Source: Bacteroidales bacterium (GTDB lineage Bacteria > Bacteroidota > Bacteroidia > Bacteroidales > Tenuifilaceae). Taken from it: a DNA stretch of 64,000 nucleotides. Below the pieces are notes generated by a model. That model was not told the origin of the DNA and did no database searches. It saw only the letters and a program-made list of their open reading frames with translations. Shown here piece after piece: positions 1 through 39,794 of this stretch; within the stretch, counting starts at the first letter, position 1, and each line of letters begins with the position of its first letter. The stretch covers positions 4,002 to 68,001 of the forward strand of contig JBBIRB010000010.1 in the NCBI GenBank assembly GCA_037442025.1, written 5' to 3'. The position numbers were made by a program, and so were the translations under genes.

Positions 1-222
1 GCCCTAAATGAATCGCTTCAAAATGCGCAGATTACTTTTATTGCAAACTCCGACCCTCTCCGCTCGCACCCCTACTTTTGGGCCTCCTATCAACTTATTG
101 GCAGTAGTGAAATGCTTATATTTCCGAGCGTAATAAAATGTTTTGTACTAGGGGCCACAGTTGTTTTGGGATTGCTATTAGCGTTATTTTTTCTGAAGCG
201 TAAATTTAAAGCAACTCGCTAA
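1..222 (+). CDS. CHAT-domain protein, C-terminal fragment (5' end lies outside the window)
   Basis: Frame 1 is open from the window edge to TAA at 220-222. The translation ALNESLQNAQITFIANSDPLRSHPYFWASYQLIGSS carries the HPYYWA-x-F-x-LIG-type motif typical of CHAT-domain C-termini, followed by a hydrophobic anchor VLGATVVLGLLLALFF. Confidence 0.5.
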   Translation, partial: ALNESLQNAQITFIANSDPLRSHPYFWASYQLIGSSEMLIFPSVIKCFVLGATVVLGLLLALFFLKRKFKATR

Positions 223-937
223 TTGCCTTTGCCTTTGCAGAGTAGTACCCATTACTGCTCGCAATGCTGGTAAATAGTTCCTTTGCTTCTATTGCCTTTT
301 CCTGCTTAAGTAGAGCAAAAGCCATGTACCATTGGGCCGTTTCTTCGTAAAATGGCTCATTATTACTTTCAATAATTTGTTTTAATAAACTTTCTGAAAG
401 TTCAAACTGTTCGGTTTCTAAATAGCAGCATGCTAGCATTAGCATTGCCTGAGTGTTGTTCGGGTTGTTCTTTAGAAATTCTTCGATAGAGGTAATGGCC
501 ACATTGCGTTCTTTTGTTGTGTATTGGCTCAAAATTTTGCTGTCAATTGTGGCAATATTGGGCCATTGGGCATTTCGAACCTCGCCCATGGGCTGAAAGG
601 GTTTGTAATACTGTGCAAAAATATGCGATGGCATTCTGCTGTTGCTGGCTATAAAATAAAAGCCAATAGCAATGAGAATACTGGCGGCGGCTACCGCCGA
701 AGCAACAAATAGTCGGATTCTTTTCGACCGCTTTTGTTGGGCATGCGCCCATTCCAGTTTCTTTCTCAGTTCCCGTTCATCAGATCCTAGTATGGCTTCA
801 CGAAGATTACGGGAGAATTCAACCTTCATTTGCAGGTTCTTATTAACGGCAAGTTCCTTCTCGAACTCTTTTAACTTTTCGCCATCCAGCCTACCAGTAA
901 TGTATTCGTCAATATATTTCGAAAGGTTCTTCTCCAT
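206..937 (-). CDS. Anti-sigma-factor-like single-pass membrane protein with TPR-like C-terminal domain
   Basis: 243-aa ORF whose start overlaps the end of the upstream ECF sigma gene by 29 nt. It has an N-terminal helical region, one TM segment (LFVASAVAAASILIAIGFYFIA) and TPR-like repeats at the C-terminus (AMLMLACCYLETEQFELSESLLKQII...). Confidence 0.6.
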   Translation of the reverse strand: MEKNLSKYIDEYITGRLDGEKLKEFEKELAVNKNLQMKVEFSRNLREAILGSDERELRKKLEWAHAQQKRSKRIRLFVASAVAAASILIAIGFYFIASNSRMPSHIFAQYYKPFQPMGEVRNAQWPNIATIDSKILSQYTTKERNVAITSIEEFLKNNPNNTQAMLMLACCYLETEQFELSESLLKQIIESNNEPFYEETAQWYMAFALLKQEKAIEAKELFTSIASSNGYYSAKAKAISELL

Positions 938-1514
938 AGCTGTTTATTATCTCATTGTAATTGGGATCGGTTTTAATGCTTTTTACCAAATACTCCTTGC
1001 AAAGGTATTTTCGCCGTCGGGCATATTCCTCCGAAGAAAAGTTTAGCTCCCTGGCAATTTCAGCAAACGATTTGCCCGAGAAGAATGCCATCAGAACTTT
1101 TTGGCACTCCTGATGCAACTTATTGAAGTGATTTTGAAACAATCGCCTTTTTTGTCCCTCTAAATACTCACCCATAATTACGCGAGGATCATCCACAATT
1201 TCTATAACATCCACTTCTACTTCCACTCCTCTTTTACGGGCGTTTTCTCGCAAAAGGTTTTGCATAATTATTTTGCACATTCCAAAAAGATAGCTCTCAA
1301 CCAATGTGTTTTCAGCAATCTCGCCCGCCTTCCCTTTCTTGTAAAGAATAATGATTGCTTCCTGAAAAATTTCATTGGCCGTATCATAGTCCAATCCGCT
1401 GCGCAGCATAACCTTCTTAACGCGTGGAAAGATTTCTCGATACAGGTAATTGAGGACAGCCTGATTCTGACCTAAAATCCCTTTGAGCAATTCATTATTA
1501 GTAAACGCAGGCAT
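909..1514 (-). CDS. ECF-type RNA polymerase sigma-70 family factor
   Basis: 201-aa ORF with a region-2-like segment (YLYREIFPRVKKVML...ANEIFQEAIIILYKK) and a region-4 HTH (CQKVLMAFFSGKSFAEIARELNFSSEEYARRRKYLCKEYL). It is coupled to the downstream anti-sigma-like gene. Confidence 0.8.
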   Translation of the reverse strand: MPAFTNNELLKGILGQNQAVLNYLYREIFPRVKKVMLRSGLDYDTANEIFQEAIIILYKKGKAGEIAENTLVESYLFGMCKIIMQNLLRENARKRGVEVEVDVIEIVDDPRVIMGEYLEGQKRRLFQNHFNKLHQECQKVLMAFFSGKSFAEIARELNFSSEEYARRRKYLCKEYLVKSIKTDPNYNEIINSYGEEPFEIY

Positions 1515-1895
1515 GAAGTTTAGTTGCTATTTGCAAATCTATTAAAAAAGCGCACAACGCAATGGTACTTGGTGCTAAATGCTACCTAAAACAGTTCTTA
1601 GCATTGAATACCCCCTTATATGTTGAAAGCGCCATTACTGATTATTGGAAGAAGACTCTGCTTTGAAAATTTTCAGGTTTGAAATCGAGTTCCTGGGATA
1701 GATTTTATATGTCAGATAATCAGGAACATGAAAAATATTTGTAAAAAAAATTAAAAATAGTTCAAAAAAGCTTGTCACGAAATGGCATTTCCTACCACTA
1801 TGGGTAGAGGGGGAGATGTTTTTTGTGCCTTTGGTTTGAGTTGAAAAAGGAAACAATAGAAAGAACCTATTTCATAACTAAAAAAATTGAATGCC

Positions 1896-2051
1896 ATGAG
1901 AACAAGTGTAAAAAAACTAAGCCTTGAACAATTCAAGGGAATGCTGGTAAACGCAGACTGCGAACTAACTATTTCTGAAATGAATCGCTTGAGGGGCGGT
2001 GAAGATAATCAAGGCGATGACCCTGATAGGCCCATTTACATTAAAGAGTAG
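1896..2051 (+). CDS. Small exported-peptide precursor with double-glycine leader (51 aa; below the ORF-track length cutoff)
   Basis: ATG at 1896, TAG at 2049-2051. The translation is MRTSVKKLSLEQFKGMLVNADCELTISEMNRLRGG-EDNQGDDPDRPIYIKE. LTISEMNRLRGG fits the L-x2-E-(L/M)-x2-(I/L)-x-GG leader pattern. An A-rich leader sits upstream of the ATG. Confidence 0.5.
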   Translation: MRTSVKKLSLEQFKGMLVNADCELTISEMNRLRGGEDNQGDDPDRPIYIKE

Positions 2052-2209
2052 GCTGAAGCAATTAATGGAAGATTTCGCCAGCAGCCCAATTAAGTCAGGC
2101 TGTTGGCTTAGTTTTTTGAATGCTCTAACTGAAAAAGTAGTATAACCATTCATGGTTAGCGGATTGTGAAGACATTGTAATGGACGTAGAATAAAATAAA
2201 ATCAACTAA

Positions 2210-2950
2210 ATGGAAACAAAAATATTGATTGAAAGGTATTTGGACTCCGAAATGGCAGAAAGTGAAAAAAATGCTTTGAGAGAAATTCTGAATGCCGATA
2301 CTAGCCTAACAAAGGAATTATCTCTTAGAAAGGATATTAACGAGTTTCTGACCGATTCTCAAGCTATTGAGTTTAGAAATAAGTTGGCCCTAGCAAGTTT
2401 GGGTATTGAGAAAAGGGGAACGTGGAACTCAAAGCGAACGTTCTATGCAGCCGCAACTCTGGCAGGAATTGCAATTGGTGGCTGGGCCACTTTTAATAGC
2501 CTTACTCCTAATGTTACAGCTCTCGATCTTTATAAGCAGAATCTGAAACCCTACCCAACGGTTCAAATATCACGTTTTGCGTTAACTCAAGCGCAAAGTT
2601 TAATGCTTCAACAGGCCCTGCAAAGCTATTCGGCATCCAACTTTTTTGAGGCATCGCAGCAGTTCGAGCAGATTCTGCTAACCGATCCCCAATCGGTTTC
2701 GGTTAAGTTTTATTTGGGAATCAGCTATTTGTATCTCGAACAATTCGACAAATCGTTCACCCTTTTAAACGAAGTTTCCCAGTCCGAAACCCTTCTGTCG
2801 CAGCAGGCATATTGGTACCTTGGGTTAGGTTTTCTGGCACAGAGCAACGTTCAGCAGGCTGAATACCATTTTACAAAGGTTGAATTATTGGGTGGGAAAC
2901 TTGCCGAAAGCGCATCTGAAATGAAGAGGAAACTGAAAAAGATTCATTAA
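2210..2950 (+). CDS. Anti-sigma-like single-pass membrane protein with TPR-like extracytoplasmic domain (paralog of 206..937)
   Basis: 246-aa ORF. The N-terminus METKILIERYLDSEMAESEKNALREIL resembles that of ORF 206..937. It has one TM segment (TFYAAATLAGIAIGGWATF) and TPR-like repeats (KFYLGISYLYLEQFDKSFTLLNEV, AYWYLGLGFLAQSNVQQAEYHFTKV). Confidence 0.6.
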   Translation: METKILIERYLDSEMAESEKNALREILNADTSLTKELSLRKDINEFLTDSQAIEFRNKLALASLGIEKRGTWNSKRTFYAAATLAGIAIGGWATFNSLTPNVTALDLYKQNLKPYPTVQISRFALTQAQSLMLQQALQSYSASNFFEASQQFEQILLTDPQSVSVKFYLGISYLYLEQFDKSFTLLNEVSQSETLLSQQAYWYLGLGFLAQSNVQQAEYHFTKVELLGGKLAESASEMKRKLKKIH

Positions 2951-2962
2951 TAACTTACTACA

Positions 2963-3424
2963 ATGAATAATAGTGGCAATAACAGTTTGAAGGGATCGGA
3001 GCTAGAGCATTTCGATGAAGCAATGGATGCCCGTGAACGTACGTTTGCAGCCTATTTGGTTAACCAACGACCCGACAGGATCTGCTTTGTTGAATCCGTT
3101 GGCGAAATGTTGCAGCTCGTTTTAACCGATGCCACCAATATTTGGGTTAGTACAACCCTTGCACAAATTTATAAGCTATTGCCTAACGATAAGTTCTTTT
3201 TTTGTGGGGCTACTTATATAGTAAATGTCGATCATATATACGAGTTCTGGGTTTCGAACCAGGCAATGCTCGTAATGACATGCGGAAATGTACTTCCCGT
3301 GCCCATTACCGATGTACATCAACTTAAGGATTTGCTAAGTAAACGGTTTAACCGAACCTTCCCCAATGGGCATAAGCCCAAGGGGAGCAAGCATATTGTG
3401 CCTCAGGTTCGCAATACTGTTTAA
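2963..3424 (+). CDS. Stand-alone LytTR-type DNA-binding protein (no receiver domain)
   Basis: 153-aa ORF starting 12 nt after the preceding gene. ICFVESVGEMLQLVLTDATNIWVSTTLAQIYKLLPNDKFFFCGATYIVNVDHIYEF...LVMTCGNVLPVPITDVHQLKDLL follows the LytTR consensus spacing (i-y-i-e...tL..le..Lp...F.r.hrsyiVN...I......l.l.ng..lPvsr). Confidence 0.6.
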   Translation: MNNSGNNSLKGSELEHFDEAMDARERTFAAYLVNQRPDRICFVESVGEMLQLVLTDATNIWVSTTLAQIYKLLPNDKFFFCGATYIVNVDHIYEFWVSNQAMLVMTCGNVLPVPITDVHQLKDLLSKRFNRTFPNGHKPKGSKHIVPQVRNTV

Positions 3425-3490
3425 GCAACAATGGATTTTTAATTCTTAACAAATATTTCGATTAATCTAGCCCTTTTAATGACTTGAATT

Positions 3491-3820
3491 ATGATTACAG
3501 TTTATAGAGATTTCAATTCAGAACTGAACGAGTGCTCCAACGGAAGTTGGCTTCAGCATTGGGAAAAATTTAGCGGGAAAAATGCCAGCTATTGTGCCAA
3601 TTGCAATTGCCTGTACTCCGAAAATTTAGTAGGTGCAATTGTAACTTTGCGTACCCATAAGTCGGATCATTTTGTTGTCCCCCTTTGCCCATACCATTAT
3701 TCCGAAACGGGATCAATTGATATATGCGATTCGTCGGTACTTGTGCTGGCAAAAAGAAAGCGGCCGCTAAGAAAGAGAAAGGAGCAAGAAATAGATGAGC
3801 TCTTTGCAATTCTGGTTTAA
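3491..3820 (+). CDS. Hypothetical Cys/His-rich small protein with basic C-terminal tail
   Basis: 109-aa ORF with candidate metal ligands in CSNGSW, YCANCNC and PLCPYHY, and a tail KRKRPLRKRKEQE. I do not recognise the family with confidence. Confidence 0.4.
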   Translation: MITVYRDFNSELNECSNGSWLQHWEKFSGKNASYCANCNCLYSENLVGAIVTLRTHKSDHFVVPLCPYHYSETGSIDICDSSVLVLAKRKRPLRKRKEQEIDELFAILV

Positions 3821-3959
3821 GTGTTCATTGTGTTTTCAATTGTATGTTAGCAACAGGGCGATACCGTTCCACAGCAAAAGAGTTGCAAATTTGTCAATGC
3901 ACAGCCCTACACAAATTTGTTACGCATTTGTTCTCGGCTAATTCGATAAAACAACAAAG

Positions 3960-4175
3960 ATGAAAAGGGACTATTTGACTTATGCAAAGAGACTTGATTA
4001 TTTGTTGGAACTAATAGAAAACGGGTGGATAAACACACCAAAACAAATAAGCGAAAAGTTTAGTTGCAGCGATAAAACTGCTAGAAACATGATAAATAGG
4101 CTAAGAGAAAGAGGACATTGTATTGTTTACTGCAAGTTTTCGAATAAATATTTCCTCAAAACCTTCAGACGGTAA
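3960..4175 (+). CDS. Small helix-turn-helix protein (HTH_11/DeoR-N-like)
   Basis: 71-aa ORF. TPKQISEKFSCSDKTARNMINRLRERG looks like a winged-HTH recognition region. Confidence 0.5.
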   Translation: MKRDYLTYAKRLDYLLELIENGWINTPKQISEKFSCSDKTARNMINRLRERGHCIVYCKFSNKYFLKTFRR

Positions 4176-4198
4176 TTATTTTACCGTCTGAAGGTTTT
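4158..4198 (+). terminator. Perfect 18-bp stem hairpin overlapping the stop codon of the HTH gene
   Basis: aaaaccttcagacggtaa (4158-4175), ttatt, then ttaccgtctgaaggtttt (4181-4198). The arms are exact reverse complements. The trailing T run is short (tttt). Confidence 0.5.
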
Positions 4199-4241
4199 AC
4201 TTTGTAGTTGACACCTCAATTATTAATTAAAAATTACTAAA

Positions 4242-5153
4242 ATGCGAAAATTTAAGTTAAAGATTCTATTGCTAGCTTTAATTCTTGTTGCTGGTGCGTG
4301 TTCCGAAAAAGAATCATTTTTTTATAGATTCGACTCAACGGCTGAATTGCTTAAAAGTTTAAGTGCCGACCAAACTATATCATGGATGGTTAGGCTTCCC
4401 AGGGGCACAACCTTTAAAGCAGAAAATGGAATGGTTAATATTTATCTGCCTACAGGGTATAAGATGATGGGTTATGATGCCACTACAAACCAATTGGTTT
4501 CTGTTAAGGGTTACACTTGTACCTGTTCAGACGACACTAAAAAATGTCAATCTTTTGTAGCTGGCGATATGGTTGGCTGTGCTACCAGCCAAACAGATCC
4601 CTGCCCAAAATGTACAGGTACTAATTCCTCATTGGAGAAAAAGAGCATGCAACAATTCGACATGCTGTATTTAATTCACCCCGAGGAAGCAACAGAAGAA
4701 GAAAAGAGATGGGCCATGTCCTGGGAGTGCCTAATCCCAATTAGGCAAATCCGTTCAGTTAAGGAACTTATTGAAATGCCTATGATTGATCAAACTGACT
4801 TGCATTCTGAAGTGTTTGTTAAAGCCCTTAAAACAGTCATAGAACATACTTTCCCTAATGGTTTTGAACCGGTTGAGTGTAATGTGATTCCAAAAGGAAC
4901 TTCGCTTTTTGCCATGCAATATAATGGCAAAAAGTTCTTTCTGTTGGGGCCCTCGGAGGCAGCAACACCCGGTATTATAGAACTGCTCCCAATGTTTACT
5001 AATATTAAGAGCCTGAAAAATGATGAAGAGATGGATGCGGCTGGTAAGGTGTATTGCTCGGGTTGCAGTGGCAAATGTAAAGTTAAGTCTGATTATGGTG
5101 GGTTGTTAAAATACTGCGATGGTTGTCCAAGTGGCTGTACAATTCATTACTAA
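4242..5153 (+). CDS. Cys-rich lipoprotein with two multi-Cys modules, function unknown
   Basis: 303-aa ORF with a lipoprotein signal MRKFKLKILLLALILVAGAC. Module 1 is YTCTCSDDTKKCQSFVAGDMVGCATSQTDPCPKCTG. Module 2, at the extreme C-terminus, is YCSGCSGKCKVKSDYGGLLKYCDGCPSGCTIHY. Confidence 0.6.
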   Translation: MRKFKLKILLLALILVAGACSEKESFFYRFDSTAELLKSLSADQTISWMVRLPRGTTFKAENGMVNIYLPTGYKMMGYDATTNQLVSVKGYTCTCSDDTKKCQSFVAGDMVGCATSQTDPCPKCTGTNSSLEKKSMQQFDMLYLIHPEEATEEEKRWAMSWECLIPIRQIRSVKELIEMPMIDQTDLHSEVFVKALKTVIEHTFPNGFEPVECNVIPKGTSLFAMQYNGKKFFLLGPSEAATPGIIELLPMFTNIKSLKNDEEMDAAGKVYCSGCSGKCKVKSDYGGLLKYCDGCPSGCTIHY

Positions 5154-29875: not shown

Positions 29876-31228
29876 TTATAGTTCGCGAACCGCTTGTTTG
29901 AATTGTCGTCCACGGTCCTCATAATTTTCAAACAGATCGAAGCTGGCACAGGCAGGCGAAAGCAGAACGGTATCGCCGGGTTGCGAGAGTTTATAGGCAT
30001 GCTGAACGGCCTCAAGGGCCGAACGGGCATCGACCATTATTGGAACAATTTCTCCAAACTCCTTATGGAGTTTTTTGTTATCGACACCAAGACAAACTAT
30101 TGCCTTTACCTTTTCCTTGGCAAGCTCAATAAGGTCGGTGTAGTCGTTGCCCTTATCGGTTCCACCTGCAATCCATACTACCGGGGTAGTCATGCTTTCG
30201 AGAGCATACCAGGCCGAGTTAACATTGGTGGCTTTCGAGTCGTTAATGTAAAGAACACCCCTTACCGATAGTACTTTCTCGAGCCGGTGCTCAACCCCTT
30301 GGAAGTCGGCCAAACTTTCGCGAATCACATCCTTTCGGATGTTTAGGGCGTGCCCTGCAATACCAGCAGCCATTGAGTTGTAAACATTGTGCTTGCCTTT
30401 AAGCGAAAGGTCTTCGATTGACATGTTGAAATCGCTATTGTTATATGTAATGAACATTTTATTCCCTTCGAGGTAGGCAGCCTGCCTCTCTTTTACTTTA
30501 TGCGAAAATGGGAGCTGCTTTGCGCGAAGTACAATTTGGTTCAGGTGGTCCATAGTTACCTCGTCGTCGGAGCAGAAAATGAAGCAATCGTCCTCCTCGA
30601 GGTTTCTGGTTATTCGAAACTTCGACTCAACATAGTTCTGCATTTTAAAGTCGTAACGATCGAGGTGATCGGGGGTAATATTCAGCAGAATGGCAATGTC
30701 GGCTTTGAAGGTGTACATGCCGTCGAGCTGAAAGCTGCTGATTTCGAGCACATAATAATCGTAATTGCCCTCGGCAACTGCCTGTGCGAAGCTGATCCCG
30801 ATGTTTCCGGCTAGGCAAACGTTCAGCCCAGCTTTCTTCATCATATGGTATATAAGCGAAGTGGTAGTAGTTTTTCCGTTGGTTCCCGTTATGCACACTT
30901 TAGTAGCAGTGGTGTACCTGCCAGCAAACTCAATTTCCGAAATAACAGGAATACCATTTTTGCGAATCTCCTCAATTAGTGGAATTCGGTCGGGGATACC
31001 CGGCGACTTTATCACCTCGCCCGCATTCAGAATGAGTTCGGGAGTATGCTTGCTTTCCTCCCAGGCAATGCCGTATTTTGTAAGGGTTTGCTTGTATTTT
31101 GGTTTAAGCGTTCCGCTATCGGATAAAAAAACATCGAAGCCCTGCTTTTGGGCCAGAATGGCCGATCCTACGCCGCTTTCGCCACCCCCCAGAACCACAA
31201 TTCGGTTTGCATTTCGAGCAGTTGCCAT
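29876..31228 (-). CDS. murD: UDP-N-acetylmuramoylalanine--D-glutamate ligase
   Basis: RIVVLGGGESGVGSAIL and [15 protein letters not shown] prefer the ATG at 31228 (MATARNANR...), 2 nt after the mraY stop. The track's 75-aa N-terminal extension overlaps mraY. Confidence 0.93.
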   Translation of the reverse strand: MATARNANRIVVLGGGESGVGSAILAQKQGFDVFLSDSGTLKPKYKQTLTKYGIAWEESKHTPELILNAGEVIKSPGIPDRIPLIEEIRKNGIPVISEIEFAGRYTTATKVCITGTNGKTTTTSLIYHMMKKAGLNVCLAGNIGISFAQAVAEGNYDYYVLEISSFQLDGMYTFKADIAILLNITPDHLDRYDFKMQNYVESKFRITRNLEEDDCFIFCSDDEVTMDHLNQIVLRAKQLPFSHKVKERQAAYLEGNKMFITYNNSDFNMSIEDLSLKGKHNVYNSMAAGIAGHALNIRKDVIRESLADFQGVEHRLEKVLSVRGVLYINDSKATNVNSAWYALESMTTPVVWIAGGTDKGNDYTDLIELAKEKVKAIVCLGVDNKKLHKEFGEIVPIMVDARSALEAVQHAYKLSQPGDTVLLSPACASFDLFENYEDRGRQFKQAVREL

Positions 31229-31230
31229 AA

Positions 31231-32481
31231 CTAACGGATTTTTAGGGTTACTACGGTTATTACTGCAAGCATTATAGCTACAATCCAGAATCGGGTAACG
31301 ATTTTGGGTTCTGGGTAGCCCTTTATTTGGTAATGATGATGCAATGGCGACATTTTGAAGATTCTGCGACCCTCGCCGTACCTGCGTTTGGTGTACTTGA
31401 AGTACGAAACCTGTATAACAACCGACAGGCTTTCGACAAAGAAAATTCCGCAAAGAATGGGTATGAGAAGTTCCTTACGGATTAGGATGGCGTAAACAGC
31501 AATAATTCCACCAATAGCTAAGCTGCCTGTGTCACCCATGAAAACCTGAGCGGGGTAACTGTTATACCACAAAAAGCCAATGGCAGCACCAATAAAGGCG
31601 CTCATGAAAATTACCATTTCCCCAGTATTGGGAATGTACATTATATTAAGGTACTCCGAGTAGATTACGTTACCCGAAAGGTAGGCGAAAATCCCAAGCG
31701 TTGTGCCTATTACAACGCTTACTCCGGTAGCCAAGCCGTCGAGCCCATCGGTTAGGTTGGCCCCGTTCGATACAGCTGTTACTATTAGTATAACAGCTGC
31801 AATAAAAACAATCCATGTTAACCTTTCCTTCCAGGGCCCCTTAAAGGGAACAAGGAAAGAGTACTCAAACTCGTTGTCCTTAAAAAAGGGTATGGTGGTT
31901 TTGGTTGTTTTTTGGTTAGGGCTTAGAATTACTTGCTTTCCGCCCGTTTGGTCGTTTCCTCCAACAATTTCGGTTCCTTCGGTGGCTACATGCTTTAAAA
32001 CTCGCTCGCGTACAACAATATCGGGGCTGAGGTAAATGGTTATGCCAACAAATAGTCCCAGAGTAATTTGCCCCAGTATTTTCAATCGGCCCGAGAGCCC
32101 CTTCTTGTTTTTCAGGAAAACCTTTATGTAATCGTCGGCAAAACCCACCAAGCCCAACCAAACGGTTGTAACCAGAAGAATGATAACGTAAATATTTTTA
32201 AGGTTGGCAAAGAGCAGAACCGGAATGAGGATAGATGCCAGAATTATAATTCCGCCCATGGTGGGAGTTCCCTTCTTCTGCATTTGACCCTCGAGCCCCA
32301 GGTTCCGAATCTCTTCTCCAATCTGCTTCTTTTGGAGGTAAACAATAATGCGTTTACCAATAAGCAGGGCAAATGCAAGCGCGGTAATGACCGCCATTGC
32401 CGAACGGAACGAAATGTACTGGTAGAGCCCGGCTCCCGGCACATCGTATTGATCGAGATATTTAAGCAGATAGTATATCAT
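31231..32481 (-). CDS. mraY: Phospho-N-acetylmuramoyl-pentapeptide transferase
   Basis: 416-aa multi-TM protein with [19 protein letters not shown] and [11 protein letters not shown]. An extra insertion follows TM5. Confidence 0.95.
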
Positions 32482-33941
32482 GGTTTTAGGGTTTTGAATA
32501 TTTCTGCAACTTCTTCCTTATCGTCGAAATGGTGCTTAACGCCCTTTATTTCCTGGTAGGTTTCGTGGCCCTTGCCAGCAATAAGTACAATATCGCCGGG
32601 GGCTGCCAGTAGGCAGGCGGTGCGAATGGCCTCGCGCCTGTCGGTTATAGAAAGCACCTTGCCCACCATGCCGGGTTCAATGCCCTGTTTCATATCGGCA
32701 ATTATGGCATCCGGCTCCTCGGAGCGCGGATTGTCTGAGGTGAGTATAACCAAACTGCTTCCTGAGGCAGCGACCTTGGCCATAGCAGGGCGTTTGGTTT
32801 TGTCGCGGTCGCCCCCAGCGCCCAGAACGGTAATGAGTTTTTCGTTTTCCTTCAGCAGTTCGTTTATGGTGCCAATAACATTCTCAACGGCATCGGGTGT
32901 ATGAGCATAGTCAACAATAGCAATTACACCGTTGGGTGCTCGTAGGTGTTCGAAACGACCTATTACTGGCTCCATAGCACTCAGGTTGGTAAGCACCTCT
33001 TGTTTGTCGAAATTCATCAATAGCGCAGCAGCATAAACTGCTGTAAGGTTGTAGGCATTAAATTGACCAATGAGGCGGCACCACATTTCGGTGCCATCAA
33101 TATTCAGCTGCATACCGTAGAGTTGATGGTCGACAATGCGGCACTTGAAATTGGCCATGGAACGAAGCGAGTAGGTGTGAACTTTCGCCTTGGTATTCTG
33201 CACCATTACCCGCCCATTGCGGTCGTCGATATTGGTAAGGGCAAAGGCGCTTGAGGGAAGCAGGTCGAAAAACCGCTTTTTGGCCTTCAGGTACTCATCG
33301 AAGGTTTTGTGGTAGTCGAGATGGTCGTGGGTTATGTTGGAGAAAATTCCACCAAAAAAATGCAGACCGGCAATGCGGTTCTGTGCTATGGCATGCGAAC
33401 TAACCTCCATAAAACAATGGGAGCATCCGCCGCTCACCATTTCGGCCAGCAGCTTATTCAAACTAATTGGGTCGGGTGTGGTATGGGTGCTGGGTACTTC
33501 GGTTTTGTGGATGTAGTTGGTAACAGTTGAGAGCAACCCAGATTTAAAGCCCAACGATTGGGCCAAACGGTACAGCAAAGTTGCCGTAGTGGTTTTACCA
33601 TTAGTTCCGGTAATACCCACAAGCGTCAAACTCTTCGATGGGTTTCCGTAAAACTCAGAGGCCATAACACCTGCTAGATACGAGCAATCGGCCACCCTTA
33701 CGTACGTAACATTGGGATCGGATTGCATTGGAAGTGTTTCGCAAACAATGGCCGAGGCACCCTTCTCAATGGCGCTGGCAATATAGTTGTGCCCGTCGGA
33801 TTGGGTTCCCTTTATAGCTATGAAAGCCGAGTGGGGGGCAACTGCTCTCGAGTCGATGCAAAGTTGGTCAATGCTAACGCACAGGTTACCCTTAACCTCC
33901 AGAACCTCGCTTTGAGGTATTATGCTTTCAAGTTTCACCAT
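32478..33941 (-). CDS. murE: UDP-MurNAc-L-Ala-D-Glu--2,6-diaminopimelate ligase
   Basis: [14 protein letters not shown] and DNPRSEEP are MurE motifs. There is a 4-nt overlap with mraY. Confidence 0.95.
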
Positions 33942-33942
33942 T

Positions 33943-36057
33943 CTAGTTGCTCATTTCAATATGAATTCTTTCGCCCTTTTCAACCCTGCTGCCGGGCGTA
34001 ATGCTTTGGCTGCGAACAAAACCCCTGCCTGTTACCCTAACCCGAAGTCCCGAGTTTTCTAAAAGGAAAAGGGCGTCCTTGAGGCTCATCCCAGTAACAT
34101 CGGGAACCAAATTGGGAATAATCGATTTTTTGCGCATTTCAACCTTCTCGTCGGTGCGAACTGTAGCCACCCAAGGGAAATCCTTACTTTTGTCGGCGAG
34201 GGGTACACCCAATTCGCGGAGCGCATACCCAAGTTCGGGCTTAAAACCACTTTTCGATTCGGGCAGTTCGGGCATTTCGCCCCTTTCAATTTCTGGAAAC
34301 CACTCCTTGCTAGTAGCGTAAACCTTGTCGGAAATTTCCTTGAAAATGGGACCTGCAACCAGATTGCCGTAGTAAACGCTGTTCGATGGCGAGTTAACTA
34401 CCACAATGCACGAGTACTTGGGGTCTTCGGCAGGGAAGTAGCCTGCAAACGAAGCCTGATAACTTATCCCTCTTTCGCCCCTGTAGCCTCGTGTGCCCCT
34501 TGCTATTTGGGCCGTTCCGGTTTTGCCCGCAATTTTATAGTTGGGGTTTTTCAGGTTCTTTGCAGTTCCGTTCTCCACAACCCCCTCGAGTATTTCGCGA
34601 ACCTTGCGTAGGGTGCTGCGTGAGCAAATGGAGTGCGAAATTACTTGGGTTGGGAACTCCCTGTCCACGGCTCCGTGGGTACGTATGGCCTTTACAAATC
34701 GGGGTTTCACCATGCGCCCATTGTTGGCAATGGCATTGTATAGTGTGAGAATTTGAATGGGTGCCAACTTTATTTCGTAGCCAATGCTCATCATGGGCAT
34801 GGAAATACCCGACCAGAGTTTATCGCCCGGGTACTTAATGTATGGGGCCGATTCACCTTTTATTTCGAGGTTCAGCGGTTTGTTCAGGTTCAGGTCGTAT
34901 ATGCGATCGATGAACTGCCTCTCTTTCCCTTTGTAATATTTTGTTACCAGTTCAGTTACGCCAACATTCGACGAGTACTCAAATACCTCCTTCACGCTAA
35001 TTCGGCCGTAGCCACCCTCCTTGGTATCTGTAACTGTTTTGTCGTAGTATTTCACCTTGCCGTTACGGGTATTCACTGTATCGGTTAGCGAAATGTGCCC
35101 ATCCTCGAGCAGTGCTATAAGTGCTGCTATTTTAAATGTCGAGCCCGGTTCGTTGGCTTCGCCAATGGCGTAGTTGAACATTTCGGTGTAGCTTCCGTCG
35201 CCATTCTTTTTCAGGTTGGCAATGGCTTTTATGTCGCCCGTTTTTACCTCCATCAGAATTACTGTGCCGTGTTCGGCATCGTGGCGGTTCAACTGTCTGC
35301 GTAGAGCCCCTTCGGCAACATCCTGCAGGGAAACATCGAGCGTGGTAATAATATCGTGGCCATCTTCGGGAGCCACCTGCATGGAACTACCCACTTCAAC
35401 CCACATGTTGCCCGGCACCCTTTGCTTAATGCTAACGCCAGCCTTGCCCCGCAAAATATGGTCGTATGCGCCCTCAATGCCCACGGCAACTCCATCCTCG
35501 TTAATATTACCAATGGTACGAGCGGCAAGGCTGGCGTGAGGTTTAATTCGACGGTTCACCTGAACCGGAATGAATCCACCCTTGTTTTCACCCAGCCTGA
35601 AAAGCGGGAATTTTTTAACTTCCTGCAGTTCAATATAGTTTATTTGGCGGCTGCCAATGGGGTAGTATCTTTTGTTGCGGGCGTGCTTACGGGCATTTAC
35701 CAGCTCCGATTTGTACGAGTAGTGCGATTTATCCCTGAAAAACTGCGAAAGGCATAGGGCCAGCGAATCGACTTTGTTGTTAAACAGGGCATCGCTAAGG
35801 CCAGCGGCTTTCAGGTCCATTCGAATTTCGAAATAAGGAACCGAAGTGGCCAGAATGCGCCCGTCGGTGGAACAAATGTCGCCGCGGTTGGGTTCAATGG
35901 TAATGTCGCGGTATGTAACCGAGCGGGCCATGCTGCGTAGCTTTGCTCCCTCAATAAATTGAAGGTAAATGATTTGGCCAAAAATAGCAATGGCCAGTAG
36001 AAGGAAGAAAGCGTAAACCAACCCAACTCGAAACAGTATTTCCTTTTTTACCGACAT
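33943..36057 (-). CDS. ftsI: Penicillin-binding protein 3-type transpeptidase (FtsI), with C-terminal PASTA-like domain
   Basis: The three transpeptidase motifs are STFK (PGSTFKIAAL), SSN (YSSNVG) and KTG (GKTGTAQ). I prefer the ATG at 36057 (MSVKKEILF...). The track extension to 36099 overlaps the ftsL 3' part in another frame. Confidence 0.92.
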   Translation of the reverse strand: MSVKKEILFRVGLVYAFFLLLAIAIFGQIIYLQFIEGAKLRSMARSVTYRDITIEPNRGDICSTDGRILATSVPYFEIRMDLKAAGLSDALFNNKVDSLALCLSQFFRDKSHYSYKSELVNARKHARNKRYYPIGSRQINYIELQEVKKFPLFRLGENKGGFIPVQVNRRIKPHASLAARTIGNINEDGVAVGIEGAYDHILRGKAGVSIKQRVPGNMWVEVGSSMQVAPEDGHDIITTLDVSLQDVAEGALRRQLNRHDAEHGTVILMEVKTGDIKAIANLKKNGDGSYTEMFNYAIGEANEPGSTFKIAALIALLEDGHISLTDTVNTRNGKVKYYDKTVTDTKEGGYGRISVKEVFEYSSNVGVTELVTKYYKGKERQFIDRIYDLNLNKPLNLEIKGESAPYIKYPGDKLWSGISMPMMSIGYEIKLAPIQILTLYNAIANNGRMVKPRFVKAIRTHGAVDREFPTQVISHSICSRSTLRKVREILEGVVENGTAKNLKNPNYKIAGKTGTAQIARGTRGYRGERGISYQASFAGYFPAEDPKYSCIVVVNSPSNSVYYGNLVAGPIFKEISDKVYATSKEWFPEIERGEMPELPESKSGFKPELGYALRELGVPLADKSKDFPWVATVRTDEKVEMRKKSIIPNLVPDVTGMSLKDALFLLENSGLRVRVTGRGFVRSQSITPGSRVEKGERIHIEMSN

Positions 36058-36064
36058 GTTTGCA

Positions 36065-36453
36065 CTACAGCCTTGCTTTAATTTTTTTGGGTGGCACAAC
36101 CGATTCCTTCAGGCCCAGGCCTTTTTCTTCAACCATGCATGCCACCTGAGTTTGCTTGCTAATATTCATGAGTTCAGCGGCCGTTGTTATCGATTCGGCC
36201 CTTAGATTCTTCACTTCAATCTAATTTCTTGGCTTTGCCTAACCAACTTCTCGTATCGGTAGCGGTTGGCAATGTATATAATGGCCAGCAGTGCCAGAAA
36301 AAAGAAGTAGGGCACCTGCGAGGTAACGCTGTCGCGGCTCAGAATATTTCCGCTGAGTAGTTCGCCCAGGCTGCTCCCCTTTTTTTTGTCGGGTTTTGCT
36401 GCCTTGCCGTCTTTCTCGTCAATGAATTCGACCCGTTGGTTTTCAGTGCTCAT
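36065..36453 (-). pseudogene. ftsL: ftsL-like cell division gene interrupted by an apparent 1-nt frameshift
   Basis: The N-terminal part (36211..36453, 80 aa, TM YFFFLALLAIIYIA) stops at TGA 36211-36213. An adjacent frame (36065..36220) continues as IEVKNLRAESITTAAELMNISKQTQVACMVEEKGLGLKESVVPPKKIKARL. This is the expected FtsL coiled-coil/C-terminal half, and it ends 7 nt before the ftsI ATG. Confidence 0.7.
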
Positions 36454-37349
36454 AGTTTTTCGGCAATTCGTAATTTAGCGCTCCGTGCGCGCGTGTTTGC
36501 TTGATTCTCCTCGTCGGAGGGAACAATTACCTTGCGCGATATCAGCTTAAAGGGCGAGGAGGTATTCCCGTAGAAATCGGTCTCCACCTTTCCTTCAAAG
36601 TTTCCAGTTTTCATAAAGTTTTTCACCAGCCTGTCCTCCAGCGAATGATAGGCAATAACCACTAGCCTTCCTTGGGGTGCCAGCAGGGTTTGTGCTTGGC
36701 TCAGCATTTGCTCAAGGGCCCGCATTTCGCCATTCACCTCAATGCGAAGCGCCTGAAATGCTTGCGCCATCATTTTGTTCTGAACCTTTTGCGGGAAGAA
36801 CTTCTGAAGCAAACCGAACAGTTCCTCCACCGTTTCAATGGGTTTAATTTGGCGAGCCTTCACCATTTCGTGGGCCAGCTTGCCGGCATTGGAAAGCTCG
36901 CCGTAGAGCCTTAGCAGTTCGGCCAGCTTTTCGGTGGGGTAGGTGTTTACCACGGTGGCGGCGCTAACGGGGCTGGCCTGGTTCATGCGCATATCTAGCG
37001 GACCCTTATGCCTAAACGAAAAGCCCCTGTTGGGGCTATCGAAGTGGTGCGAAGAAACGCCCAAATCGGCCAGAATGCCATCGACCCTTTGAACCCCTTG
37101 GTATCGAAGGAAGTTGCCAACGAAACGGAAATTTCCCCGCACAAAGATGAACCGCTTGTCGGCAGGTGCGTTAGCGGCAGCATCCTCGTCCTGGTCGAAC
37201 CCAAAAAGGCGGCCCTTGGCCGAGAGTTTTTCGAGAATGGCCCGTGAGTGGCCACCCCCACCGAAGGTAAGGTCGACATAGGTTCCGTTGGGCTTAATGT
37301 TAAGCCCCTCGATGCTCTCGTTTAGCAGCACGGGTACGTGGTACGCCAT
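36450..37349 (-). CDS. rsmH: 16S rRNA (cytosine1402-N4)-methyltransferase
   Basis: MAYHVPVLLNESIEGL...YVDLTFGGGGHS...DLGVSSHHFD...SLEDR are RsmH/MraW signatures. Confidence 0.95.
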   Translation of the reverse strand: MAYHVPVLLNESIEGLNIKPNGTYVDLTFGGGGHSRAILEKLSAKGRLFGFDQDEDAAANAPADKRFIFVRGNFRFVGNFLRYQGVQRVDGILADLGVSSHHFDSPNRGFSFRHKGPLDMRMNQASPVSAATVVNTYPTEKLAELLRLYGELSNAGKLAHEMVKARQIKPIETVEELFGLLQKFFPQKVQNKMMAQAFQALRIEVNGEMRALEQMLSQAQTLLAPQGRLVVIAYHSLEDRLVKNFMKTGNFEGKVETDFYGNTSSPFKLISRKVIVPSDEENQANTRARSAKLRIAEKL

Positions 37350-37352
37350 ATC

Positions 37353-37817
37353 CTACTCCTCCCTAAGTTGCGACGAACCAAGAATTTTCTCGGCCAGCGA
37401 TGCGAACCGATTCTCGTCGAGGCCGTTGCTGTCGTATAGTTCTTTACTCCAAATTTCAATTTTGTTATCCTGGGCGCTCAGCACCGCATCCTTGGTAATG
37501 CGTACCATATCGAGCAGCCGTTTGGGTATGAGCAGCCTACCGTTGGAGTCGAGGCTAATTTCGGCGGTGCCTCGGTAGAATTCCCTGAGGAATTGTGCCT
37601 GCTCCTTGCTGTATGGGTTTGTGTTACGCCTAATAAGGGCGTTTTGGCGCTCCCACTCCTCCATGGGGAAAAGCACCAAACAGCTTTCGTAAATGTCCTT
37701 TTTCACCACAAAGCGATCGGGGGAGGCAGATCGGCTCTGCTTCCGAAGGGCTGCGGGAAAGAGCAAGCGCCCCTTCTCGTCCACCCTGCATTCGTAATCG
37801 CCAATAAATGAGGTCAT
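37353..37817 (-). CDS. mraZ: Transcriptional regulator MraZ
   Basis: The 154-aa ORF has two SpoVT/AbrB-like repeats carrying the DxxxR motifs (VDEKGRLLFP and LDSNGRLLIP). It is the first gene of the dcw cluster. Confidence 0.95.
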   Translation of the reverse strand: MTSFIGDYECRVDEKGRLLFPAALRKQSRSASPDRFVVKKDIYESCLVLFPMEEWERQNALIRRNTNPYSKEQAQFLREFYRGTAEISLDSNGRLLIPKRLLDMVRITKDAVLSAQDNKIEIWSKELYDSNGLDENRFASLAEKILGSSQLREE

Positions 37818-38355: not shown

Positions 38356-39525
38356 CTAAAGTGCCTGCCGGAGTATTTTTTCAATTTGGTGGCAAATTCT
38401 TTCGAAAACTTCATTTTCGGATCCCTCGCCCGAAACGGCATGAATAAGGTTGCGCTTTGCATAAAAGTCGCGGGCCAGAACGGTTTTCTGTTCGTACTCC
38501 TCGAGCCGCGAAACAATGGTTTCGGTGTCCTTGTCGTAGTTGCGGCTGCGGTCGGTTTTGCTCCTGTGGGCAAGCCTTTTCATGGCTTCTAAGGGGCTAA
38601 CCTGTATTTCAATGGCCGAGGTAATGGTGCTATTCATTTTTTTAAGCATGCCATCAACAATGTAGGCCTGCACAATGGTTCGGGGGAAGCCCTTAAATAT
38701 AAAGCCCCGGGAGCCCGGACTGGCCTGAATTTTTTCTTCAATAAGCTTAATGGCAATTTCGTCGGGAACAATAATCCCCTTGTCCATGTAGGGTTTGGCA
38801 ATTTGTCCAACCTCTGTATTCCTTTTAATTTCTTGCCGCAACAGGTTACCGGTTGAAATGTAAACCATATTGTACTTCTCGGCAATTTTTTTGGCCTGCG
38901 TACCCTTGCCAGAGCCCGGGTAACCAAAAATTATTATGTTGGCCCAGCGGTTCTCGAGCGATTTCTGCACCGCCTTGTCGAGCCGCGACTGAACCTCATC
39001 AATACTGCCAGTGCCATCAATGGGGAAACAAATGCCCTTGTCCTGATAGTACTTGGCAACAGGTACCGTTTTGGAGTAGTACTCGTTTAACCGAACCTGA
39101 ATAACATCGTCGTTATCGTCCTTGCGGTTGCTAACCTGTGCGCGCGATTTTAGCCTGCGAACCAGCTCATCGTCGGGAACCTCGAGGCTAAGCATGCAGG
39201 TTAACGAGGTGTTCATGTTCATTAATAGCCCATCGAGAATATAGCACTGTACGGTGGTGCGGGGGAACCCGTCGAACAGGAAACCGTTGGTGTCGGTTTT
39301 CTTCTGAATTTTATTTTCGATTATCTGAACCACCAGCTCGTCGGAAACCAAACCGCCCTTTTCAATAATGTTTTTTGCTTTAATTCCTAGCGGCGAACCT
39401 TCGGCAATCTCTTCGCGAAGAATTTCGCCGGTGGATATGTAGGTAAGGTTGTATTTCTTTATCAACCAATCGCTTTGGGTACCTTTCCCTGCACCCGGAG
39501 GACCAAATAGGGCAATGTTGAGCAT
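38356..39525 (-). CDS. adk: Tandem (fused double) adenylate kinase
   Basis: Two complete short-LID AK modules lie in one ORF. Module 1 has FGPPGAGKGTQ, ISTGEILREE, FDGFPRT and RKDDNDDVIQVRLNEY. Module 2 has FGYPGSGKGTQ, ISTGNLLRQE, FKGFPRT and RNYDKDTETIVSRLEEY. I prefer the ATG at 39525 (MLNIALFG). Confidence 0.85.
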   Translation of the reverse strand: MLNIALFGPPGAGKGTQSDWLIKKYNLTYISTGEILREEIAEGSPLGIKAKNIIEKGGLVSDELVVQIIENKIQKKTDTNGFLFDGFPRTTVQCYILDGLLMNMNTSLTCMLSLEVPDDELVRRLKSRAQVSNRKDDNDDVIQVRLNEYYSKTVPVAKYYQDKGICFPIDGTGSIDEVQSRLDKAVQKSLENRWANIIIFGYPGSGKGTQAKKIAEKYNMVYISTGNLLRQEIKRNTEVGQIAKPYMDKGIIVPDEIAIKLIEEKIQASPGSRGFIFKGFPRTIVQAYIVDGMLKKMNSTITSAIEIQVSPLEAMKRLAHRSKTDRSRNYDKDTETIVSRLEEYEQKTVLARDFYAKRNLIHAVSGEGSENEVFERICHQIEKILRQAL

Positions 39526-39794
39526 GAATCGATTTATTTTTTTCACTAAAGTAATAAAAATTATATTCCACATTCATATCCACCCTAAATTTGCTGAATT
39601 ATTAAGACGAGTATTTCATATTTATTTTGCTTGAAATAACATTACTTTTAAGTCCTGTTTTTCAATCGTAAAGCAACCTGTTACCCATATGCTATGGTGT
39701 TGGTTTTGCTAAAATTCATTGGGTACTCTTTCATAAGTCGATAATTTTATGGTAATTAGCTTCTGATTTGAAATTATAAGTTTAATTATTTTGT

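Follow-up and report, generated by a model that had tools for sequence, protein, structure and literature searches.

A GG-leader peptide gene, a TPR membrane sensor and a stand-alone LytTR regulator form a candidate peptide-sensing circuit in Bacteroidales

Introduction

Do Bacteroidales carry a circuit in which a small exported peptide reports to a dedicated membrane receptor? This question is raised by a 64,000-nucleotide stretch of DNA from a bacterium of the family Tenuifilaceae (GenBank assembly GCA_037442025.1, contig JBBIRB010000010.1, positions 4,002 to 68,001; hereafter the window, in whose own numbering positions are given unless another locus is named). Near one end of the window, a gene for a 51-aa peptide with a double-glycine (GG) leader is followed on the same strand by a gene for a 246-aa single-pass transmembrane (TM) protein with a TPR domain, hereafter the sensor, and by a gene for a LytTR-type DNA-binding protein (Table 1). 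Quorum sensing by peptides is seen as characteristic of Gram-positive bacteria, and to our knowledge the control of the many GG-leader peptides of Bacteroidota is poorly understood.

A preliminary description of the window, made from its letters without database searches, had put forward this triad as a candidate peptide-sensing circuit. The coordinates and sequences it gave for the peptide open reading frame (ORF), the sensor, the LytTR protein and a divergent sigma factor pair proved exact, and the candidacy gained support from conservation and from the identity of the LytTR protein, while the signalling function itself is something we infer. Genes, folds, leader consensus, deep synteny, coding selection on the core and a conserved cis element can all be read directly from the triad and its relatives. 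Judging from these sequences, the GG-leader peptide gene, single-pass TM/TPR sensor and stand-alone LytTR regulator appear to make up a peptide-sensing circuit, and we lean, by no means firmly, towards reading them as a three-gene autoinducing peptide circuit on an anti-sigma-factor chassis. The triad looks like a case of cell-to-cell peptide signalling in Bacteroidota that has apparently gone undescribed.

The triad is kept together across distant Bacteroidales

Related loci, referred to below by L numbers, came from a genome scan with a four-member LytTR alignment, which found a single genome locus (L003, Bacteroidales bacterium UBA2287), from exact-protein look-ups (L004, L006, L007, L047 and L049), and from a metagenome scan using an alignment of the sensor, which contributed 38 loci; the loci from all three sources were analysed with local hidden Markov models (HMMs). 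The triad is present in at least seven lineages across distant Bacteroidales, with TPR proteins 30-43% identical to the window's sensor, and its carriers include the cultured species Williamwhitmania taraxaci (L047, genome GCA_900096565.1).

Gene order in L002, a metagenomic locus whose LytTR protein is 89% identical to that of the window, is identical to the window's. More generally, wherever a LytTR-type locus includes upstream DNA (the window, L002, L003 with two copies, L004, L006, L007, L010, L012/13, L018/19, L020-22, L040 and L047), a homologous GG-leader ORF precedes the sensor gene by 4-415 nt, and the cut end of L049 retains a C-terminal peptide fragment that reads ...DKPIYIKE before the stop. 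The LytTR gene is the invariable partner of this sensor branch, starting 12-30 nt downstream of the sensor gene (12 nt in the window) or overlapping it, so that the two genes are adjacent or overlapping in all relatives. The preliminary description had proposed a check of related genomes for synteny of the three genes, and there the small ORF is indeed kept at the same position upstream of the sensor across deep divergence.

The closest non-trivial relative of the window locus is L049 (1..10819; Logan ERR14788459), whose sensor is 43% identical. Its downstream side is syntenic with the window, running into mfd and then a pantothenate kinase-like gene; in the interval between the LytTR gene and mfd, a 241-aa gene of unknown family and a 1017-aa Y_Y_Y/His_kinase hybrid sensor take the place of the window's Cys-rich genes.

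The peptide gene combines a GG leader with a core under selection

The leader of the window's peptide (LTISEMNRLRGG) follows the double-glycine consensus L(-12), E(-8), L/M(-7), I/L(-4), G(-2), G(-1). Among 257 ATG ORFs of 30-90 aa in the 64-kb window, the peptide ORF is the only one to match the leader pattern [EQ][MLI]xx[LIFM]xGG, and the occurrence of a GG-leader ORF here is far beyond chance; on both counts the double-glycine leader of the preliminary description stands. An identical 51-aa product is called as a gene on a Logan contig, and a TTG-extended version of the ORF would start at 1887. Cleavage after the GG is predicted to release, for example, DGPYTTSTDGTTCPNPIILIKK, or shorter C-terminal fragments.

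Across 18 family peptides, the leaders fit the consensus positions L(-12), E/Q(-8), M/L(-7) and L/I(-4), followed by GG; M at -7 and the GG are invariant, and L at -4 occurs in at least 90%. Behind the leader, a variable acidic linker rich in Gly, Thr and Pro (8-35 residues) leads into a conserved tail. The cores are Cys-free, acidic and of low complexity, with conservation confined to the last 6-8 residues, where they share the C-terminal motif P-Phi-Phi-Phi-[KR]-[EK] (Phi, hydrophobic). The tails (...PDRPIYIKE, ...PDTPIYIKE(D), ...DPPVVIKED, ...NPPPIVKED, ...DPPIYNED, ...DPVIVIRK, ...NPIILIKK) covary by lineage with the TPR protein.

Comparison of close copies speaks to how these cores evolve. 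The L002 peptide has the window's leader and an in-frame three-codon insertion within the core. In L003, two peptide copies with dissimilar leaders and the same core differ over 19 codons by nine synonymous and zero nonsynonymous changes, and the two copies in L026 differ by four synonymous and zero nonsynonymous changes. Because the duplicated copies differ only synonymously, the amino-acid sequence of the mature part is evidently under selection. Taken with the in-frame indel, these counts supply a coding signature for the small ORF, which the preliminary description had proposed to be a gene.

A stem-loop sits in the 158 nt between the peptide ORF and the 246-aa ORF (RNAfold gives -26.1 kcal/mol for 2052..2130). 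L002 retains the stem, in which a G.U pair has become G-C, but not the T-run that follows. The structure was overlooked in a terminator scan because its loop is 11 nt long, and it may be a partial terminator or attenuator that raises the peptide:receptor ratio.

The sensor joins an anti-sigma-like domain to a TPR domain, and its partner is a LytTR protein

The sensor comprises a cytoplasmic helical N-domain (residues ~1-68), a TM helix (~74-97) and a three-repeat TPR domain (~127-245). Its AF2 model has a mean pLDDT of 81, with values above 90 in the TPR part and a helical N-domain of lower confidence. TPR family profiles match the 246-aa protein below their cutoffs; Foldseek pairs its C-terminal domain with the three-repeat TPR domains of YbgF, of the type III secretion chaperones PcrH/SycD/IpgC and of a designed TPR protein, and several of these matches bind peptides (the PcrH/SycD/IpgC complexes, and the designed TPR with an Hsp90 C-terminal peptide). 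Because a K/R cluster precedes the TM helix, the positive-inside rule predicts an N-in protein with its TPR domain in the periplasm.

End to end, the sensor aligns with the sigma-coupled 243-aa paralog encoded in the window and with the anti-sigma-type proteins of the sigma-only loci described below. Its N-domain may be called anti-sigma-like by homology and context, not by a strong profile match: the zf-HC2 profile (PF13490) is matched by 4 of 14 family N-domains, with a best E value of 2.8e-4, and an N-domain profile run against PDB sequences returned insignificant matches only. The architecture given in the preliminary description, an anti-sigma-like N-terminus, one TM helix and a TPR-like outer domain, is nonetheless backed by the AF2 model, the Foldseek matches and the paralog homology together.

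The 153-aa protein encoded downstream scores 36.1 bits against PF04397 (gathering score 22.6; E 7.5e-9; residues 37-125), and a profile of its family, run against PDB sequences, finds 3d6w (2.3e-16), AgrA (1.7e-6) and ComE (3.4e-4). In its AF2 model, a long N-terminal helix (residues ~11-35) precedes the LytTR beta fold (~37-125), with pLDDT around 90 over residues 30-130. The modelled fold is the ten-stranded one of the AgrA/ComE type: the top Foldseek matches are 3d6w, 4g4k, 3bs1 and 4cbv (template-modelling score on the target, TM(target), about 0.71), and the model superposes on 3d6w, AgrA and ComE at a root-mean-square deviation of 1.7-1.9 A. The protein had been described as a LytTR regulator without a receiver domain, and so it is by profile score and by fold, with only a helix ahead of the DNA-binding domain. 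Its family is small, with 28 matches at E<=1e-3 among 1.84 billion representatives, about a dozen of which are stand-alone proteins of 121-156 aa.

Peptide and sensor stay together with two kinds of output

Relatives of the sensor fall into three classes according to their partner. In class A, the partner is a stand-alone LytTR protein and a GG peptide is always present (the window, L002-L004, L006, L007, L010, L012-19, L020-22, L040, L047). In class B, it is a soluble HisKA + HATPase_c protein of ~285 aa, and the GG peptide has a shorter core, such as GTDNPIDLVVHPK or GADSPIDLIIPPDARG; the kinase gene is seen in L025 and L026, and L023, L024, L028 and L031 are assigned to this class by peptide type and sensor score. 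In class C, a gene encoding a sigma factor of the extracytoplasmic function (ECF) group lies directly upstream of the TM/TPR gene or overlaps it, and there is no GG peptide (L030, L033, L038, L041, L044-46).

Two class B loci (L025, 483..2122; L026, 1653..3841) display the arrangement in full: the peptide gene, with cores such as GTDNPIDLVVHPK and in two copies in L026, lies 230-400 nt upstream of the TM/TPR gene, and the soluble kinase replaces LytTR, with no adjacent response regulator. With a soluble histidine kinase as the partner of both peptide and sensor in this sister branch, it is the TPR sensor, and not LytTR itself, that the peptide goes with. We regard this persistence of the GG peptide beside the sensor, across two outputs, as the strongest evidence at hand for a functional pairing of peptide and TPR domain.

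One class C locus, L045 (3337..6970; Ga0172366_10008727), has its sigma and TM/TPR genes followed directly by a gene for a 729-aa C39-peptidase ABC exporter, recognisable by QHDAMDCGPSCL, Walker A and LSGGE, an arrangement that links the sensor family to GG-peptide export.

A broader reading of the three classes is possible, and we hold it more tentatively than that of the triad alone. The family might represent a modular anti-sigma chassis, in which an unmodified peptide exported by a peptidase-containing ABC transporter (PCAT) would be recognised beyond the cytoplasmic membrane by a TPR receptor with an anti-sigma factor as its ancestor, since rewired to LytTR or to a soluble histidine kinase, with pherotype-like, lineage-specific pairs of peptide and receptor; such a system would be the first peptide autoinducer of Bacteroidota.

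A conserved element is confined to the LytTR-type loci

Upstream of the peptide gene lies a conserved cis-regulatory element that consists, in order, of phased A-tracts, TTGTCAC (1772..1778), 17 nt, CACTAT (1796..1801) and GGGTAGAGGGGG. Its consensus among relatives is TTGTCAC-N17-CAyATA, followed by a G-rich segment that in many cases folds into a short hairpin, and it is recognisable in loci whose proteins are 30-44% identical. Between the window and L002 the element is almost invariant, whereas the 80 nt nearest the peptide ATG diverge. The window contains one copy, with 0 expected by chance, and the element is confined to LytTR-type loci, being absent from class B and class C. A search of 1400..4300 against Rfam gave no match to a known RNA at E<=1. 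We also considered a small protein encoded on the minus strand across the element, and rejected it: the DNA is near-identical between distant loci at third positions as well, and the ORF is not kept.

The -7 box of Bacteroidota sigma-A has the consensus TAnnTTTG (PMC9723704). The plus strand of 1400..2300 contains no such box, so that no canonical sigma-A promoter was found for the peptide operon; one is found upstream of the divergent sigma gene in the window (Table 1) and likewise in L002, L003 and L014. Two sigma-only loci (L030, L038) carry ECF-type promoters of the form AAC-N16-CGTA. That the element might be the sigma family's own promoter is unlikely, since it is absent from sigma-only loci and the sigma genes of class A carry sigma-A boxes. 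Because the element is specific to class A, lacks a sigma-A box and differs from the class C promoters, it is most simply taken as a LytTR-dependent site, and it may be the promoter or operator through which LytTR acts on the peptide operon.

Extra copies of the element precede other genes in L047, L018/19, L040 and L010/12. In L047 (11401..16029; FMYP01000052.1), a second copy stands before a gene for an 87-aa helix-turn-helix (HTH) protein, after which come three genes for Cys-rich, bacteriocin-like GG-leader peptides, an S41 peptidase gene and a gene for a 483-aa thioredoxin/AhpC-type protein. In L018, L019 and L040, copies precede a gene resembling those of methyl-accepting chemotaxis proteins (MCP-like) and a divergent HGD-D/BcrAD fusion gene.

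Several further observations concern the DNA around these sites. In many cases, a transcript starting just after CAyATA would have a short GC hairpin at its 5' end (GAAGGGCTACCCTTC or GGAGGCACACCTCC, for example), as at about 6980..7000 of L004 and at the minus-strand copies of L010/L012; in the window, 1802..1814 is G-rich with no obvious hairpin. In L014, the interval that separates the peptide operon from the divergent sigma gene holds a fragment of an IS630/DDE-type transposase (3889..4071, minus strand; ...YLPPYSPDSNPIERAWW..., recognised by eye from its motif); the fragment is downstream of a minus-strand element copy that has been orphaned. Within the LytTR coding region of the window, an ECF-type TTAAC-N15-CGTA runs antisense (3040..3063, minus strand); it is identical in L002 and has the layout of the class C sigma promoters of L030 and L038, and it may have arisen by chance.

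The element also bears on an alternative that centres on the sigma factor, and which we judge unlikely. Here the 246-aa protein would be a second, peptide-responsive anti-sigma factor, the ECF sigma factor would read the element, and LytTR would be a co-transcribed regulator or repressor. In its favour, the sensor is paralogous over its full length to the 243-aa protein coupled to the sigma factor, a homologous sigma gene is divergent in most LytTR-type lineages, and the element is -35/-10-like with a fixed 17-nt spacing and no TAnnTTTG box, which makes an alternative sigma factor plausible. However, L004, L006, L020-22 and L047 have triad and element with no adjacent sigma gene, the element is absent from class C loci, two of which carry AAC-N16-CGTA instead, and the invariable partner of the sensor branch is the LytTR gene.

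The distribution of the sigma pair points the same way. The preliminary description had noted a divergent ECF sigma factor coupled to a paralog of the TM/TPR protein; the pair is present at the coordinates it gave, but is not part of the core module. A 381-nt intergenic region separates the sigma gene from the peptide operon, and a divergent sigma gene recurs in L002, L003, L007, L010, L012-17, L018/19 and L040. No sigma gene adjoins the triad in the Williamwhitmania-group loci (L004, L006, L020-22, L047), so the pair is best regarded as a frequent, lineage-specific neighbour. It is the 243-aa paralog, not the 246-aa sensor, that has the adjacent, co-oriented sigma gene typical of an anti-sigma factor.

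A proposed mechanism and what weighs against it

For a circuit built on peptide, sensor and LytTR, we infer export, binding, sequestration and activation steps as follows. The 51-aa precursor would be exported, and its GG leader removed, by a C39-peptidase exporter of the PCAT type whose gene would lie elsewhere in the genome. What is released, an acidic, disordered peptide or a shorter C-terminal part of it bearing the ...P-I-Y-I-K-E tail, would then bind the periplasmic TPR domain, a step suggested by how strictly the peptide and the TPR protein co-occur and co-vary. In the resting state, the N-domain of the sensor may keep LytTR at the membrane in an inactive form, in the way that HdrM and BrsM restrain HdrR and BrsR; gene pairing and homology to sigma-sequestering paralogs argue for such a role. 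Ligand binding, or ligand-triggered proteolysis, would free LytTR, and free LytTR would activate TTGTCAC-N17-CAyATA upstream of the peptide operon, giving positive feedback. In relatives, it may also activate the element copies that precede bacteriocin-like and other genes.

A number of observations weigh against this mechanism. No ORF in the 64-kb window combines Walker A with an LSGG[QE] signature, so that the window has no C39-peptidase ABC exporter, as the preliminary description had reported, and no C39 exporter adjoins any LytTR-type triad. A 718-aa ORF, considered as an exporter, is a penicillin-binding protein (PBP) of the dcw cluster. Profile searches with the leader gave a divided outcome: the window's peptide scores 13.2 bits against TIGR04149 (E 0.061), below the cutoff of 25, while 12 of the 18 family peptides match that model at E<=1, the best at 4.7e-6; family peptides match the ComC and Mersacidin leader models weakly. 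The dN/dS of 0.44 between the peptides of the window and L002, which are also separated by the in-frame indel, is weakly informative, with 18 substitutions, the comparison of paralogs being more decisive.

LytTR domains bind paired direct repeats (about 9 bp, with an 11-13 bp spacer) upstream of target promoters, and a scan of offsets 12-29 in the conserved element scored best at 20 nt, where an imperfect direct repeat TTGnCAy has 4.6/9 matches vs 4.1 at offset 18, which makes for a weak candidate LytTR binding site. The element also resembles a sigma-70-type -35/-10 pair, and many loci encode an ECF sigma factor nearby, so that it may instead depend on a sigma factor. The family is rare, moreover, and its examples come mostly from metagenomes. 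Finally, because an acidic peptide of 16-41 aa is too large for general porins, it is uncertain whether the circuit signals from cell to cell or senses its own peptide in the periplasm.

Less probable than the sigma-centred alternative is one in which the peptide is a product of the kind made on ribosomes and modified after translation (RiPP) or of the bacteriocin type, or a decoy, with the TM/TPR protein serving immunity, maturation or export quality control and LytTR acting as an ordinary cluster regulator. The leader does resemble TIGR04149, a family of radical SAM (rSAM)-modified RiPP precursors, and some neighbourhoods are suggestive: genes for ATP-grasp and SPASM proteins lie just downstream of the triad in L004, and genes for Cys-rich GG peptides and for thioredoxin/VKOR and C39-like proteins just downstream in L006 and L047, the L006 cluster including a non-catalytic C39-like-VKOR-thioredoxin fusion protein. 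The nearest published remark that we found is that some RiPP clusters of Bacteroidales contain TPR genes, whose products might bind pheromones (PMC10352776). Yet no modifying enzyme is conserved with the triad, and none is adjacent in the window, L002, L003, L007, L018 or L049; the cores, acidic and Cys-free with a conserved end, are unlike the neighbouring Cys-rich bacteriocin-like peptides; and the peptide follows the sensor into the histidine kinase branch, which fits a ligand and its receptor better than a toxin and its immunity protein.

Quite improbable, finally, is purely periplasmic self-monitoring, in which the peptide would be exported to the periplasm only and give a cell-autonomous report on GG-peptide export or envelope state: the hosts are diderm, highly charged peptides of 16-41 aa are too large for general porins, a related sigma/TPR pair shares an operon with a C39 ABC exporter (L045) and the surroundings of the triads show no outer-membrane export component, but the lineage-specific, pherotype-like cores are more typical of intercellular discrimination, and the anatomy is the same as that of the autoinducing circuit, from which this reading differs solely in where the ligand acts.

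Coordinates and neighbouring genes

The coordinates of the triad, its element and its neighbours are collected in Table 1. The 243-aa paralog exceeds the cutoffs of TPR_6 and TPR_19, matches the sensor HMM at E 2e-22 and has a weak match to NF052375 ('antisigma'); the sigma factor of the window aligns over its full length with that of L045, at 31% identity.

Table 1. Features of the candidate circuit and of adjoining genes, in window coordinates
Feature	Position	Strand	Basis or remark
243-aa TM/TPR anti-sigma-type protein, paralog of the sensor	206..937	-	overlaps sigma gene by 29 nt
ECF-type sigma factor, 201 aa	909..1514	-	TIGR02937, 44.1 bits vs cutoff 42.9
Sigma-A -7 box TAGATTTG (TAnnTTTG)	1534..1541	-	~20 nt upstream of sigma ATG
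Conserved cis-regulatory element	1725..1814	+	conservation, window vs relatives
Precursor peptide gene, 51 aa	1896..2051	+	ATG ORF, MRTSVKKLSLEQFKGMLVNADCELTISEMNRLRGG followed by EDNQGDDPDRPIYIKE
Leader, codons 1-35, ending in GG	1896..2000	+	sequence
16-aa acidic core EDNQGDDPDRPIYIKE	2001..2048	+	sequence
Stem-loop, 10-bp stem GCCAGCAGCC / GGCTGTTGGC, then TTAGTTTTTT	2077..2117	+	RNAfold
Single-pass membrane sensor, 246 aa	2210..2950	+	AF2 model, homology
Stand-alone LytTR DNA-binding protein, 153 aa, without receiver domain	2963..3424	+	PF04397
71-aa HTH_11-like protein, recurrent accessory gene	3960..4175	+	HTH_11 E 2e-4, below cutoff

L002, L004, L006 and L047 each have a small HTH gene where the window has its 71-aa one, downstream of the LytTR gene, and the window's 71-aa protein is 29% identical to that of L047 (E 1e-6). 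On either side of this gene, the window encodes a 109-aa Cys-rich protein (3491..3820) and a 303-aa Cys-rich, lipoprotein-like protein (4242..5153), both without a family match; the 109-aa and 71-aa genes are conserved in L002. A hairpin with an 18-bp stem (4158..4198) overlaps the 3' end of the HTH gene. The three genes at 3491..3820, 3960..4175 and 4242..5153 may be local cargo of the circuit. Farther along the window, a 405-aa ORF (38356..39573, minus strand) holds two tandem adenylate-kinase (ADK) domains, an unusual duplication or fusion, and adjoins the mraZ-mraW-PBP-mur dcw cluster (29876..37817).

Discussion

What kind of system would the triad be? Its closest working resemblance is to the LytTR regulatory systems (LRS) and to quorum sensing of the ComCDE/Blp type, and it fails the defining features of both. 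Taking likenesses and differences together, we consider it somewhat more probable than not that the triad is a variant form both of quorum sensing by peptides and of a LytTR regulatory system.

In the LRS of Streptococcus mutans (HdrRM and BrsRM), as here, a receiver-less LytTR protein is encoded, in the same orientation, beside a membrane protein thought to restrain it; autoregulation through an upstream element would be expected here too, with bacteriocin-type genes as likely targets in some relatives. The differences lie in the partner, which is polytopic with DUF3021 or DUF2154 in the LRS and here single-pass, anti-sigma-like in its N-domain and with a TPR domain in the periplasm, in the gene order, with the membrane protein first in a diderm Bacteroidales host, and in the dedicated GG-leader peptide gene within the operon. 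A Pfam search of the sensor found no match to DUF3021 or DUF2154. Because the sensor has a single TM helix and a TPR domain and lacks DUF3021/DUF2154, the triad is not a member of the described LRS families, though it may work alike. No ligand or signal is known for LytTR regulatory systems, and the 'LRS-like' operons of Bacteroides combine NfeD/DUF2154 proteins with a membrane-anchored LytTR protein, unlike the module of the window (PMC6193735).

With ComCDE, BlpCHR and Agr of Firmicutes, the triad shares a GG-leader precursor with a LytTR-family factor, a positive-feedback layout and an association with bacteriocin-like loci. It differs from them in having no membrane histidine kinase, receiver domain or phosphorelay and no linked exporter, and in that the receptor would be a TPR domain on an anti-sigma-like protein. 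The RRNPP family (Rap, Rgg, NprR, PlcR, PrgX) offers a different parallel, with a TPR domain as presumed receptor, an adjacent peptide gene and a conserved precursor C-terminus; RRNPP receptors, however, are cytoplasmic, usually carry their own HTH and bind re-imported peptides, in Firmicutes and their phages and plasmids, whereas the sensor has no HTH, its TPR domain is predicted to lie in the periplasm and DNA binding falls to a separate protein.

Pairs of ECF sigma factor and single-pass anti-sigma factor resemble the sensor in their anti-sigma-domain (ASD)-like N-domain, one TM helix, extracytoplasmic sensory part and full-length homology; the difference is that the sensor's partner here is LytTR, or a soluble histidine kinase in the sister branch, and that a peptide gene has been added. 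The TIGR04149 RiPP precursors of Bacteroidota, for their part, have the same leader type (KK.. L..EM..L.GG), but the triad has no conserved rSAM/SPASM maturase and its core is acidic and Cys-free with a conserved tail.

The preliminary description knew of no Bacteroidota module combining these three parts. Our literature search agrees with it, finding no paper that describes the triad or an equivalent module, and none on a peptide pheromone system in Bacteroidota. The model can be tested directly, since Williamwhitmania taraxaci, one of the carriers, is a cultured species. If it is true, the triad would supply a ligand-receptor pair for a LytTR regulatory system, and it would mean that the single-pass architecture of anti-sigma factors can be re-targeted to a LytTR protein or a histidine kinase. 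It would also provide a compact three-gene sensor module for use in Bacteroidales engineering.

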